Assembly: GCA_964635045.1 (NCBI GenBank)
Contig: CAZWMJ010000005.1
Coordinates: 1 to 52,553 of the forward strand
DNA length: 52,553 bases
DNA from: an uncultured Gammaproteobacteria bacterium
GTDB lineage: Bacteria > Patescibacteriota > Microgenomatia > Levybacterales > UBA12049
Reading direction: 5' to 3'
Notes under the pieces: model-generated
The model's input: only the letters and a program-made list of their open reading frames with translations
The model's database searches: none
Told to the model about the DNA's origin: nothing
Translations under genes and position numbers: made by a program
Shown: positions 17,210 through 23,436 of the stretch, piece after piece
How the letters are laid out: each line of letters opens with the position of its first letter
Numbering within the stretch: the stretch's first letter is position 1

Positions 17210-17296
17210 GCGGACGTGGCGGAATGGTAGACGCGATAGGTTCAGGACCTATTGACCCAAAAGGTCATGGGGGTTCAACTCCCTTCGTCCGCACCA
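17210..17296 (+). tRNA. tRNA-Leu(CAG)
   Basis: GCGGACG acceptor, ATAGG-TTCAGGA-CCTAT, long variable arm, ends ACCA. Confidence 0.95.
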
Positions 17297-17317
17297 CTTC
17301 GACAGGTTTAGTGTAAG
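17295..17317 (+). repeat. tRNA-abutting repeat (CACTTCG...CAGTGTAA family), degenerate copy
   Basis: cacttcgacaggtttagtgtaag overlaps the CCA of tRNA-Leu(CAG). Confidence 0.6.
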
Positions 17318-17320
17318 CAA

Positions 17321-17403
17321 GGGTCGGTGGCGGAACTTGGTATACGCGCATGCTTGAGGTGCATGTCCCGCAAGGGGTGGAGGTTCAACTCCTCTCCGAC
17401 CCA
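17321..17403 (+). tRNA. tRNA-Leu(GAG)
   Basis: GGGTCGG acceptor, CATGC-TTGAGGT-GCATG, long variable arm. Confidence 0.95.
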
Positions 17404-17404
17404 C

Positions 17405-17486
17405 ATCTGCAAAGCAGATTTCTGATATTTCATGTTTACATTTTAAAAAGCTTAAAATTGAAAAGTAAAAATTCTGCTCTGCAGAA
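17405..17486 (+). mobile_element. 82-bp internally deleted (MITE-like) derivative of the GIY-YIG element at 23128-23436
   Basis: Ends ATCTGC-AAA-GCAGAT and TTCTGC-TCT-GCAGAA; interior 17425-17457 reads (I)FHVYILKSLK, a GIY-YIG N-terminus. Confidence 0.75.
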
Positions 17487-17561
17487 GGTCGATTAGCTCA
17501 ATGGTAGAGCGCTTCGTTTACATCGAAGATGTTGGGGGTTCGAGTCCCTCATCGACCACCA
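17487..17561 (+). tRNA. tRNA-Val(TAC)
   Basis: GGTCGAT acceptor, CTTCG-TTTACAT-CGAAG, ends ACCA. Confidence 0.96.
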
Positions 17562-17583
17562 TTTGTTGTATAATAAAGGTCCT

Positions 17584-17656
17584 GCCGAAGTTGCCAATGT
17601 GGTCAAGGCGTCCGCCTGAAGAGCGGATTATCGGTGTTCGATTCACCGCTTCGGCA
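17584..17656 (+). tRNA. tRNA-Phe(GAA)
   Basis: GCCGAAG acceptor, TCCGC-CTGAAGA-GCGGA, CGGTG-TTCGATT-CACCG; atypical GCC/GGC D-stem. Confidence 0.88.
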
Positions 17657-17684
17657 CCCGCCAAAAATTGAATATTTGGGCGGG
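17657..17684. repeat. spacer hairpin joining tRNA-Phe and tRNA-Gly
   Basis: cccgcc-aaaaattgaatatttg-ggcggg; starts right after the Phe discriminator and its last G is +1 of tRNA-Gly. Confidence 0.6.
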
Positions 17685-17755
17685 CGCGAGTAGTTCAGTG
17701 GTAGAACGTCTCGTTGCCAACGAGAAGGTCGCCGGTTCAATCCCGGTCTCGCGCT
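17684..17755 (+). tRNA. tRNA-Gly(GCC)
   Basis: GCGCGAG acceptor, TCTCG-TTGCCAA-CGAGA, U73. Confidence 0.96.
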
Positions 17756-17784
17756 CAAGGAGTCTGACTCGGCTAATTATTGCT

Positions 17785-21296: not shown

Positions 21297-21337
21297 TTTA
21301 ATTAAAAAATCTTGTAGGACATAAACTTATTATATAG

Positions 21338-21372
21338 CCCTTCGACCCTTCGCTATGCTCCTCGCTCAGGGA
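21338..21372 (+). repeat. repeat-family copy
   Basis: cccttcgacccttcgctatgctcctcgctcaggga shares the TCGCTWTGCTCYTC core with 23514-23563 and 26871-26900. Confidence 0.55.
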
Positions 21373-21423
21373 GTTCGACTTTTAGATTTCAGAGATAATT
21401 TGACAAATATAGTGGTTATAACA

Positions 21424-21456
21424 GTGAGCGAACCCAATTTATTGGGTGAGTCGAAC
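21424..21456 (-). repeat. hairpin repeat at the 3' end of the disrupted tRNA-Gln
   Basis: Minus strand GTTCGACTCA-CCCAAT-AA-ATTGGG-TTCGCTCAC. Confidence 0.55.
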
Positions 21457-21458
21457 TG

Positions 21459-21565
21459 CTGGGAGACTAGGATTCGAACCTAGATAGTAAGATCCAAAGT
21501 CTTACGTCTCATCGCCTTTGGCGAGACCGCGCCGAAGGCGCTGGCTACCGTTAGATGACTCATGT
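21459..21565 (-). pseudogene. tRNA-Gln(TTG) pseudogene with 36-nt D-loop insertion and lost 5' acceptor strand
   Basis: TAAGA-CTTTGGA-TCTTA arm, CTAGG-TTCGAAT-CCTAG and TCTCCCA-G are intact; 5' ACATGAG cannot pair; insertion at 21509-21544. Confidence 0.75.
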
Positions 21566-21571
21566 CTAGAG

Positions 21572-21642
21572 CTGCCGGGCTTGGATTCGAACCAAAATAG
21601 ACGGATCCAAAGTCCGTCGTCCTACCATTAGACGACCCGGCA
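21572..21642 (-). tRNA. tRNA-Gln(TTG), intact
   Basis: TGCCGGG/CCCGGCA-G acceptor, GTCT-AATGGTA-GGAC, ACGGA-CTTTGGA-TCCGT. Confidence 0.95.
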
Positions 21643-21645
21643 GTT

Positions 21646-21888
21646 CTAGACACCAATCAATTTCTTAAATGCCTCTCCATGCTTATATTTCTTTATTTGT
21701 TGTTCTCTTTTAAAGGCTTCACTTTTTGTTTCAAATTCTTCTTCATAAACAATTTCAAATGGTCTATACGGCTTTGTCGATTTATTTTTACCTGCGTTAT
21801 GAGTTCTTAGTCTTTTATATTTATCCAATGTATGACTAATGTAATACCAATCATTAATCTTACTTCTTAGAATATAGGTAACATACAT
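21646..21888 (-). CDS. minimal GIY-YIG nuclease (80 aa, YhbQ/SLX1-like)
   Basis: MYVTYILRS..YYISHT..RLRTHN..STKPYRPF..EAFKREQQIK; the second motif has S instead of G. Confidence 0.9.
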   Translation of the reverse strand: MYVTYILRSKINDWYYISHTLDKYKRLRTHNAGKNKSTKPYRPFEIVYEEEFETKSEAFKREQQIKKYKHGEAFKKLIGV

Positions 21889-21892
21889 ATTT

Positions 21893-21967
21893 GATCCAAA
21901 GTCCGTTGTCTCATCGCCTTTGGCGAGACCGCGCCGAAGGCTCTGGCTACCGTTAGACGAACCGGCA
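21893..21967 (-). pseudogene. 5' half of tRNA-Gln(TTG) with the same 36-nt D-loop insertion, broken after the anticodon loop
   Basis: TGCCGGT-TC-GTCT-AACGGTAG-[21946-21911]-GAC-A-ACGGA-CTTTGGA-TC, then AAAT-ATG of the GIY-YIG gene. Confidence 0.8.
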
Positions 21968-22042
21968 ATCCTCATAATTATAGCACAGGAAGCGATTTTT
22001 TTGCGGTTGACCTTGGCTTCTAATTCAAATTATAATAATTGA

Positions 22043-23127: not shown

Positions 23128-23436
23128 ACCTGCAGAGCAGGTTTCTTAAGACTTAATGTATAAGGTTTACTTATTAAAAAGTTTAGCTAAACCTGAAAAA
23201 AGTTATGTAGGTAGAACAATTAAACCGATAGTGGAACGTTTAAAAGAACATAATTCAGGTCAAGCGAGGTCAACTAAATCTTATATACCGTGGAAGCTGA
23301 TATATTATGAACAATTTTATTGTGAATTATGTTCAGATAAAAGAGAGGTTTTTCTGAAATCGGGAAAGGGTTTTAGATTAAGAAAAATTATATTAGAAAA
23401 CCAAGAGTTATTAAGATAGTGTTCTGCTTTGCAGAA
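23128..23436 (+). mobile_element. 309-bp GIY-YIG cassette with inverted hairpin termini, between tRNA-Leu and tRNA-Pro
   Basis: Left end ACCTGC-AGA-GCAGGT; right end GTTCTGC-TTT-GCAGAA(C), where the C is +1 of tRNA-Pro. Confidence 0.75.
23156..23419 (+). CDS. minimal GIY-YIG nuclease (87 aa)
   Basis: MYKVYLLKS..SYVGRT..RLKEHN..STKSYIPWKLIYYE..KREVFLKSG. Confidence 0.92.
   Translation: MYKVYLLKSLAKPEKSYVGRTIKPIVERLKEHNSGQARSTKSYIPWKLIYYEQFYCELCSDKREVFLKSGKGFRLRKIILENQELLR

Follow-up and report, generated by a model that had tools for sequence, protein, structure and literature searches.

A GIY-YIG nuclease gene nested in a disrupted tRNA-Gln gene, a candidate selfish cassette with a double-hairpin element in Patescibacteria

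The contig CAZWMJ010000005.1 (assembly GCA_964635045.1), analysed here as a window of 52,553 nt, carries on its minus strand a rearranged tRNA-Gln locus, in which the gene for a GIY-YIG nuclease of 80 amino acids (aa) is located between the 5' half of a tRNA-Gln gene (copy A) and an intact tRNA-Gln(TTG) gene, followed by a third, likewise damaged tRNA-Gln copy (copy C). All features that an original prediction had listed for this locus were found in place by direct reading of the window sequence (Table 1), among them a TATAAT hexamer (21982-21977), the break of the half-tRNA 2 nt past the anticodon loop with the ATG of the nuclease gene four nt further on (21888), the TAG stop codon (21648-21646) within TCTAGA, and a third copy with a different 3' half and a destroyed 5' acceptor strand. 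Both damaged copies contain an insert of 36 nt, named H in the following, exactly between GGTAG and GAC; the two inserts are identical in 35 of 36 positions, a match that none of 100 shuffles gave. The part of copy A before H (X) comprises the 5' strands of the acceptor stem and the D-stem and the D-loop, the part behind it (y') the 3' strand of the D-stem, the 5' strand of the anticodon stem, the anticodon loop with TTG and 2 nt more, where the relic ends. After removal of H, y' is contiguous with X and copy A is identical to the intact gene in 36 of 39 positions; a C in the D-loop (TAACGGTAG) is shared with copy C and not with the intact gene, thus the 5' half is indeed the chimera it had been taken for. 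Copy C without its insert matches the intact gene in only 50 of 65 positions. Its 3' part (Y) consists of the anticodon arm TAAGA/TCTTA with TTG, the T-arm and the 3' acceptor strand TCTCCCA-G. The TCTCCCA cannot pair with the preceding sequence, the acceptor stem is without a 5' partner; the place of this partner is occupied by the sequence TCTAGACA, followed by TGAG and then by copy C. Infernal scored copy C at 26.6 bits, below the threshold of 29 bits, and covered the model positions 9-63 only. Part Y is a dead relic, and the intact tRNA-Gln(TTG) is the working copy of the module.

Copies A and C share a direct repeat of 68 nt, identical in 62 of 68 positions, with a perfect run of 34 nt within H. 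The two repeats bracket 334 nt, namely the nuclease gene, the intact tRNA and the trailer arm TCTAGACA; a tyrosine or serine recombinase gene was absent from this segment, which held only the GIY-YIG open reading frame (ORF) and the tRNA. The D-arm of copy C (TCATCTAACGGTAG) and its 3' end (TCTCCCAG) were also present in the tRNA-Gln of a Levybacteria locus (L007) and in the last relic of L005. Copy C is therefore the relic of a different tRNA-Gln, probably the resident one, and the working tRNA would have arrived with the ORF. The Logan contig L001 (SRR12113430) is the exact product of a recombination within the identical 34-nt run, relic-H-relic without ORF and tRNA, and a second Logan contig (L002, SRR12113424) stops at this run. 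Both contigs come from short-read assemblies of related samples, which have their ends at the H repeat and at a 16-nt palindrome (window about 21430-21446); palindrome and H fragment assemblies at tRNA loci.

An extended -10 site (TGCTATAAT) stands 9 nt 5' of the relic of copy A, and the same TGnTATAAT context precedes the relic in L005. A simple -35/-10 promoter scan of the window did not call the site at 21985-21977. It is presumed to drive relic, nuclease gene and intact tRNA as a single transcript. The original prediction had also noted an ATG at 21975 that reads through the half-tRNA in frame into the nuclease. This ORF of 109 aa exists, but it is not conserved and its in-frame state is coincidental: in homologues the corresponding upstream DNA is read in other frames, or a stop codon closes it, such as the TAA that precedes the ATG of L005 by two codons. 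Since H is free of stop codons in most frames, the ORF is often prolonged through it by gene callers.

Table 1. Coordinates of the tRNA-Gln locus in the window of 52,553 nt
Feature	Position	Strand	Remark
Extended -10 promoter-like site TGCTATAAT	21985-21977	-	TGC before TATAAT; read from sequence
Copy A, part X, tRNA-Gln positions 1-21	21967-21947	-	19/21 identical to intact gene
Left 68-nt direct repeat (x'+H+y')	21960-21893	-	Repeat search family D6, 91% identity
Element H of copy A, 36 nt	21946-21911	-	Covariance model R1, 52.6 bits
Copy A, part y', tRNA-Gln positions 22-39	21910-21893	-	17/18 identical to intact gene
GIY-YIG nuclease gene, 80 aa, UPF0213-type	21888-21646	-	Pfam PF01541
Leader arm TGTCTAGA (last ORF codons, stop, 1 nt)	21652-21645	-	Complementary to trailer arm
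Intact tRNA-Gln(TTG)	21642-21571	-	ARAGORN; Rfam RF00005 60.8 bits, full length
Trailer arm TCTAGACA	21570-21563	-	Pairs with leader arm
Copy C, third tRNA-Gln copy	21558-21458	-	5' acceptor strand missing
Copy C, part x', tRNA-Gln positions 8-21, TCATCTAACGGTAG	21558-21545	-	Identical to positions 8-21 of L007 Levybacteria tRNA-Gln
Right 68-nt direct repeat	21558-21491	-	Repeat search family D6
Element H of copy C	21544-21509	-	R1; all stem pairs intact
Copy C, part Y, tRNA-Gln position 22 to 3' end	21508-21458	-	Partial tRNA match

A locus scan with one genome per species returned 57 loci with a relative of the nuclease gene, distributed over Patescibacteria (Levy-, Roizman-, Magasanik-, Pacei- and Saccharibacteria, and others), Ignavibacteriota/Melioribacter and Bacteroidota. 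In 41 of the 57 loci the nuclease gene was followed by an intact tRNA called by ARAGORN, 39 times within 50 nt of the stop codon and twice after intervening repeat units. The identity of this tRNA was Gln (TTG or CTG) in the seven closest relatives, otherwise Ser (four anticodons), Tyr or Thr. In at least 28 of these loci the 130 nt upstream of the gene were the 5' part of the tRNA concerned, broken up by a GC-rich double hairpin; this relic was often 100% identical to the intact tRNA (38/38 in L006, 39/39 in L011). The flanks of H were contiguous tRNA positions, which indicates a clean insertion. H ended 10-28 nt before the ATG in about 30 loci; the palindrome is coupled to the nuclease gene and not the independent second event that had been assumed. 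With X and Y as the two parts of an intact tRNA split at position p, the module reads on its 5' side promoter, X, H and y' (the next 8-18 nt of Y), 0-13 nt and the ORF, and on its 3' side 0-45 nt, the intact tRNA and often a unit of trailer arm, x' (the last 5-14 nt of X), H and Y, once or twice in tandem. The split position p was 21/22 in the window, in L003-L007 and in the Ser-GCT/TGA types, 6/7 in L008, 14/15 in the Ser-GGA type, L019 and L027, 30/31 in L009 and L071, and 35/36 in the Tyr loci, i.e., between the anticodon bases 34 and 35. Within the Gln clade the junction of relic and ORF was near tRNA position 38-45 whatever p. Relics with H after the intact tRNA were present in the window, L003, L004, L005, L007, L020, L024, L030, L040, L042, L044 and L047, with two tandem 3' relics in L005 and in L040. 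The simplest case, L071, consisted of a relic of positions 1-43, the ORF, the intact tRNA and a relic of about positions 44-72. Melioribacter sp. OK-6-Me, apparently an isolate assembly, had at least three tandem units of leader, X, H, y' and ORF, and units of relic and H without an ORF were observed at a tRNA-Thr (L041, two copies) and a tRNA-Asp (L167).

The working tRNA of the window is enclosed by an 8-bp stem of a leader arm (TGTCTAGA) and a trailer arm (TCTAGACA), which covaries across the Gln-type loci (GTGTCTAG/CTAGACAT, GTATCTAG/GTAGATAC, GTGCCTAG/GTAGGCAT). As a universal feature of the module this stem was rejected: it was significant overall (p = 0.006), yet absent in many Ser and Tyr loci. 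Leader/trailer complements also surround some Patescibacteria tRNAs that are not beside a nuclease gene; 10-14 bp extend the acceptor stem of tRNA-Thr(GGT) and tRNA-Trp in L029 and of tRNA-Thr(TGT) in L045 and L052. Signs of decay were an in-frame stop codon in the ORF of L006, a truncated gene in L057 and relics eroded by deletion in L004 and L008. The window and L003-L009 shared no flanking genes, and no orthologous empty site could be aligned because of this lack of synteny. A different arrangement was seen in a metagenome-assembled genome of Melioribacter roseus (L021, 2887-3380): a GIY-YIG gene of a second type follows a tRNA-Ser(GCT), then come 3' tRNA-Ser relics that carry in the T-loop a different double hairpin (TGAGCCggaGGCTCA-TCAGCCttaGGCTGA), and one relic bears both this hairpin and H. 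This arrangement resembles a cassette type in mirror image, equipped with a hairpin family of its own. In the window, past copy C (21337-21457, minus strand), there are an inverted repeat (AGTTCGACT...AGTCGAACT), the 16-nt palindrome ACCCAATAAATTGGGT and a GC-rich motif (CCCTGAGCGAGGAGCATAGCGAAGGGTCGAAGGGC) followed by a six-codon ORF stub; a similar motif (GCCCTGAGCGAACGAAGTGAGTCGAAAGGC) precedes a second-type GIY-YIG gene in L041 (2840-2958). This region may be the remnant of another cassette.

H consists of two abutting GC hairpins of 7 bp each; an A is bulged out in the first and, in many copies, a T in the second. In copy A it reads CCAGAGCC-TTC-GGCGCGG plus TCTCGCC-AAA-GGCGATGA, with one broken stem pair (A at position 5). 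A gap-free alignment of 24 copies had 98.7% of the cells paired in the two-hairpin model and 41 double-sided changes, and none of 500 shuffles was as good; pair 4-16, for example, occurs as CG, GC or UA. H is a selected structure. Within this set the 5-15 pair was broken only in copy A of the window. The second hairpin is nearly the reverse complement of the first, so that H matches its own covariance model R1 on both strands: copy C scored 57.9 bits on the minus and 52.9 bits on the plus strand, a pseudo-dyad, and such a symmetry suits a dimeric protein or a cruciform. The two hairpins had been expected to pair also with each other. For the window sequence this long hairpin is the energy minimum, but the comparison of copies gave it no support, with 79% paired cells, equal to shuffles, and a single long hairpin was dismissed. 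A hammerhead-like reading of the GATGAG in H was rejected as well, this stretch not being conserved in other copies. The length of H was 35-37 nt, in protein genes 36-39 nt for the in-frame copies, and the variants differed between nuclease clades.

In the 52-kb window R1 found only the two H sites of the module, and in 270 kb of related loci nearly all H copies stood directly in front of the nuclease gene or directly behind the intact tRNA. A scan of metagenome contigs with a degenerate pattern was less specific; more than half of the matches, on contigs with a GC content above 0.6, occurred by chance and were discarded. On low-GC contigs H stood beside nuclease gene and tRNA in about 11 contigs. 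Further copies were inserted in frame in genes for an XerC-like integrase (L149), the wing/scaffold domain of SecA (L067) and an N-terminal extension of GyrB (L162), the hosts being confirmed by Pfam, also in a ribonucleotide reductase (L143) and a ClpB-like protein (L175), and on further low-GC, Patescibacteria-like contigs (L081, L095, L171). They encode peptides such as TTAYGGAPQKAVG, ITASGGTPLKAVV and HHRLWRGPAESGK. One H was part of an insertion in a 23S rRNA gene (L111, 2946-2983), and intergenic DNA held several H or single-hairpin units per about 200 nt (L096, 3780-3950; L124, 9560-9800). No target-site duplications were recognised around solitary H copies, with flanks that were A-rich and uninformative. 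The insert thus proved to be a real structured palindromic element that recurs elsewhere, contrary to the refuting outcome that the original prediction had named, a sequence without further copies. The D-loop targeting assumed in that prediction was not upheld: in relatives H follows the acceptor stem or lies in the stem or loop of the anticodon arm or in the T-loop of some 3' relics (L024, L110), and it is also found in protein-coding and rRNA genes. Nor is it a REP (repetitive extragenic palindrome) with a GTAG/CGTC tag; the GTAG belongs to the D-loop of tRNA-Gln, and other copies are preceded by CTG, TTG, TGG or A-rich DNA. H is a mobile mini-palindrome in the manner of REP or of the Rickettsia palindromic elements (RPE), not specific for tRNAs or D-loops and strongly linked to the nuclease clade.

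The 80-aa protein matched the Pfam family GIY-YIG (PF01541) with residues 1-67 (E = 6.5e-14, 52.4 bits, cut-off 22.6 bits), and the best sequence matches in the PDB were 1zg2 (BH0048) and 1ywl (EF2693) with E about 1e-5. The residues Y5, Y16, R26, H30, N31 and E57 of the catalytic set are present. A protein search retrieved 32 close homologues with 52-72% identity, and a profile search of 1.84 billion cluster representatives yielded 3,503 clusters at 50% identity with E ≤ 1e-10. The clade is marked by a C-terminal KxGEAFKKL motif together with the tRNA/H context. In many clusters the N-terminus is extended by the translation of the hairpin (TAxGGxPxxAV, HRLWRGP) or of the T-arm of a tRNA, and in several homologue gene calls by that of the half-tRNA with H, e.g., in P0003 (SSNGSQRLRRGLAIGDETTDFG). 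The frame is that of the window in P0003 and P0017 and another in P0010 and P0015; since the extensions use differing frames, the upstream DNA is conserved and its translation is not. The nuclease phylogeny followed the tRNA identity, with a monophyletic Gln clade in which TTG and CTG isoacceptors were mixed. In an exact-protein look-up neither the 80-aa nor the 109-aa product was on record, and PHROGs, PADLOC and NCBIfam gave no match for this protein or for a second GIY-YIG protein of the window. The window protein is a member of UPF0213, an uncharacterised group. The stand-alone proteins of UPF0213/COG2827, to which 1zg2 and 1ywl belong, are of the same fold family and size; these proteins are without assigned function or described genomic context, while the cassette clade is defined by its motif and by tRNA and H.

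We consider it probable, with considerable reserve, that the locus is one tRNA-Gln-lineage copy of a widespread selfish cassette, a mobile ORF resembling a homing endonuclease gene and nested in a disrupted tRNA. A nuclease gene integrated at the anticodon with a partial tRNA duplication had been predicted; the nesting in a partly duplicated tRNA-Gln stands, whereas the private Gln-Gln rearrangement gives way to a conserved module. From this anatomy we infer the following course. The ORF would have no promoter of its own and be transcribed from the tRNA promoter as the 5' leader of the working tRNA, and RNase P would then part mRNA and tRNA. Because the ORF lies in this leader, the host, so our proposal, could not silence it without loss of the tRNA. 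The nuclease would cut cassette-free tRNA genes of the same identity, and the repair would copy ORF and tRNA into the break, as in the homing of mobile ORFs; the incoming intact tRNA would make up for the destroyed gene. H would be the cis element of the cassette, most likely a structure that the nuclease binds or recognises, or else a means to break the homology shared by relic and intact tRNA. Its roles may coexist: a recognition or operator structure, a heterology that prevents recombination between relic and tRNA from deleting the ORF, and a stabiliser of the mRNA 5' end. Recombination between the H-bearing 68-nt repeats could remove or install the 334-nt segment of ORF and tRNA. The nonsense codon of L006, the truncation of L057, the eroded relics of L004 and L008 and the lack of synteny are the pattern of a cycle of invasion and decay.

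Several observations speak against such a cassette. By cutting its cognate tRNA gene the nuclease would put its own intact tRNA copy at risk as well; no change conferring resistance was identified, and around the H site the intact tRNA of L005 does not differ from the relics. The protein consists of the GIY-YIG domain and a short C-terminal helix motif, with no other Pfam domain; a DNA-binding domain like those of I-TevI, I-BmoI or SegB is absent, which makes site-specific homing no more than a candidate mechanism. In the window protein Ser replaces G18 of the YIG motif, a Gly in 19 of 19 aligned homologues; judged by this exchange and by the broken stem pair of H in copy A, the window copy may be inactive or decaying. 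Relatives of the protein were not detected in the viral contigs searched. Copies of H exist far from any GIY-YIG gene as well, which allows for an indirect link between H and the nuclease. A simple insertion would not have left the two relics of the window with an overlap of 68 nt. The only candidate for an empty or excised allele, L001, could be an assembly path at k=31 through the 34-nt run.

In its working the cassette would have its nearest analogue in the mobile ORFs (mORFs) of fungal mitochondria, known from atp6 of Allomyces macrogynus and from atp6, atp9, cox2 and nad3 of Glomus, with a GIY-YIG ORF in atp9 (PMC3630166). An mORF is a free-standing endonuclease ORF in a host gene that brings along a foreign gene part; this part becomes expressed and the native part is left as an unexpressed duplicate (PMC3630166). 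In the window, similarly, the ORF is flanked by relics, and the carried tRNA and copy C belong to different tRNA-Gln lineages. The cassette differs in its location on a bacterial chromosome, in a tRNA gene as target and in the carriage of a whole tRNA instead of a gene end, furthermore in relics on both sides, in the bare 80-aa catalytic domain and in the conserved double hairpin. SegB of phage T4, a free-standing GIY-YIG homing endonuclease, makes its cut in the tRNA gene region of a related genome, and together with its flanks it is passed on preferentially (PMC2330249, PMC2988022). Its gene shares with that of the window the GIY-YIG family and the position between tRNA genes, but Seg proteins have a DNA-binding domain and cause neither a tRNA duplication nor a hairpin element, and the window protein lacks a PHROG match and relatives in the viral contigs. 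Palindromes in frame in essential protein and RNA genes are reportedly a selfish trait of RPE, described, as is said, by Ogata et al. in 2000. RPE have been reviewed (PMC10969869). Common to both are hosts with small genomes and palindromes tolerated as extra peptide loops; in-frame insertions in conserved protein genes were observed in L149, L067 and L162, none in the window. RPE differ by a length of 100-150 bp, an unrelated sequence and no known linked nuclease gene, against the 35-37 nt of the GIY-YIG-linked H. Small mobile elements of two adjacent GC hairpins are said to occur in the mitochondria of chytrids and Allomyces, where Paquin, Laforest and Lang reportedly found them in 2000. These double-hairpin elements are mentioned in PMC2800124. 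They resemble H, by description only, in their presence both between genes and in variable regions of RNA genes, within genomes that also have mobile endonuclease ORFs; they are mitochondrial, and no fixed coupling to an endonuclease gene or to tRNA relics is described.

The strongest rival explanation starts from H. Together with the GIY-YIG gene it could form a pair like REPIN (doublets of REP in inverted orientation) and RAYT (REP-associated tyrosine transposase), in which a single-copy, largely vertically inherited nuclease mobilises or maintains H, and H inserts at single-stranded loops of folded DNA, such as the cloverleaf loops of tRNA genes or AT-rich coding DNA; the tRNA relics would then be by-products of the insertion of H and of local duplication, not of the homing of an ORF. 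The pseudo-dyad of H, its presence on both sides of the nuclease gene like that of REPs beside RAYT genes, and its sites in tRNAs, loops or stem-loop junctions, agree with this explanation, as do the solitary copies in the genes for SecA, GyrB, the XerC-like integrase, ribonucleotide reductase and the ClpB-like protein, in 23S rDNA and in intergenic clusters, the ORF-less units of L167 and L041, and the variation of H by nuclease clade. REPs and REPINs (PMC3116915, PMC3733652, PMC2817692) are likewise GC-rich palindromes of about 36 nt in inverted pairs, which flank a small nuclease-type gene and have many copies elsewhere. The linked gene of the cassette, however, was GIY-YIG in every locus and never a Y1 (HUH; IS200/IS605-like) transposase, H lacks the GTAG/CGTC tag, it is found in coding and RNA genes and thus not strictly extragenic, and its copy number is low in the window, with no H outside the module. 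The inverted pair of hairpin units in H, its multiple copies and its presence on both sides of an enzyme gene resemble REPIN/RAYT in working, not by membership. GIY-YIG enzymes only hydrolyse DNA, which leaves the pasting of H unexplained. We know of no strand-transfer chemistry in this family. Decay of the ORF and absence of synteny are furthermore more like a short-lived selfish gene than a maintained, host-like one. We regard a REPIN/RAYT-like origin of the locus as rather unlikely, and give a slightly better, still minor chance to the further-reaching view that H is the non-autonomous and the 80-aa protein the autonomous half of a mobile element of a new class in bacteria, the GIY-YIG counterpart of REPIN/RAYT. 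H would in that case insert at loops of folded DNA, i.e., the D-, anticodon and T-loops of tRNAs, rRNA and, in frame, SecA, GyrB and XerC, and the nuclease gene would survive nested in the leader of the tRNA gene that it duplicates.

An operon of benefit to the host, with the H-containing tRNA-like leader as regulatory RNA and the nuclease as housekeeping factor for the adjacent tRNA gene or its transcript, would explain the tight, conserved spacing of H and ATG, the conserved leader/trailer stem and the size of the protein family. Such a function is improbable: pseudogenised or truncated copies stand beside an unaffected tRNA, units pile up in tandem, the occurrence is patchy and on different tRNAs, relics decay by deletion (L008, L004), and there is no match to an RNA family. 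Rfam, with gathering and permissive thresholds, revealed no intron, ribozyme or leader family in the window region (E ≤ 5) and in 13 loci (E ≤ 1), the matches being tRNAs only, plus partial tRNA matches below threshold for the relics. Still less credence is due to H as an intervening sequence removed from RNA, a new tRNA intron, with the H-bearing copies as functional or split tRNAs and the nuclease as homing or processing enzyme. It is a clean insertion between contiguous tRNA positions, its structure is conserved and in protein genes it preserves the reading frame. Yet none of the copies with H is able to form an acceptor stem: copy A ends at position 39, the 5' strand is missing from copy C and its counterparts in L005, L040 and L007, and L001 would have to pair TGCCGGT with TCTCCCA. 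The intact copy always adjoins, ARAGORN called neither copy A nor copy C, the Infernal match of the latter was the sub-threshold one to positions 9-63 mentioned above, and H within ORFs is open in the host frame, as expected for a translated and not a spliced sequence. A bulge-helix-bulge intron was discarded, the surrounding genes being bacterial and an acceptor stem not to be formed. The model of the original prediction, a private tRNA-Gln rearrangement plus an independent REP-type palindrome targeting D-loops, fits the same D-loop position (GGTAG/GAC) in the window and L003-L007 and is nevertheless hardly tenable, for more than 40 loci with tRNAs for Gln, Ser, Tyr or Thr show this composite, H sits at varying positions (7/8, 14/15, 21/22, 30/31, 35/36, T-loop) and yet always near the ATG, the GTAG is tRNA sequence absent from other copies and no RAYT is involved. 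A chimeric order caused by a mis-join through the 68-nt repeats, where Logan assemblies of related samples indeed break (L002) or take another path (L001), is equally hard to uphold against the same order in dozens of independent assemblies by different assemblers, among them long contigs and an apparent isolate genome, against the recurrence of the architecture in more than 50 independent assemblies, and against the unique and continuous sequence between the repeats of the window.

A description of the module was not found in the literature searched, with subscription journals outside the scope; the cassette is apparently undescribed, an earlier description being possible. If the selfish cassette is real, it gives a context and a testable function to thousands of tiny hypothetical proteins of the GIY-YIG/UPF0213 kind, which would belong to selfish cassettes settled in tRNA genes of Patescibacteria, Ignavibacteriota and Bacteroidota. 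It would account for half-tRNAs, for tRNA pseudogenes with a 36-nt insert, for odd N-terminal extensions of gene calls and for contig breaks at tRNA loci. A structured palindrome of 36 nt is written in frame into essential proteins and into rRNA of streamlined genomes, a parallel to the RPE of Rickettsia, but with a candidate enzyme alongside. As a minimal system of an 80-aa nuclease, a 36-nt DNA structure and one tRNA, the cassette may demonstrate how a target is found without a DNA-binding domain and how mobile DNA ties itself to an indispensable gene. It is testable in the laboratory because cultured Melioribacter strains carry it.

The window contains a second, different stand-alone GIY-YIG gene on the plus strand (23156-23419, 87 aa, Pfam E = 2e-9). 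Within 23130-23436 there is no H and no obvious tRNA relic; the gene lies 28 nt after a tRNA-Leu(TAA) and 17 nt before a tRNA-Pro(TGG) and is bracketed by the small hairpins CTGCagaGCAG (23130-23140) and TTCTGCtttGCAGAA (23422-23436). Altogether 16 tRNA genes were present in the 52 kb (15744-48028), including a Leu-Leu-Val-Phe-Gly cluster at 17210-17756, with tRNA-Gln(TTG) as the sole glutamine tRNA type found.

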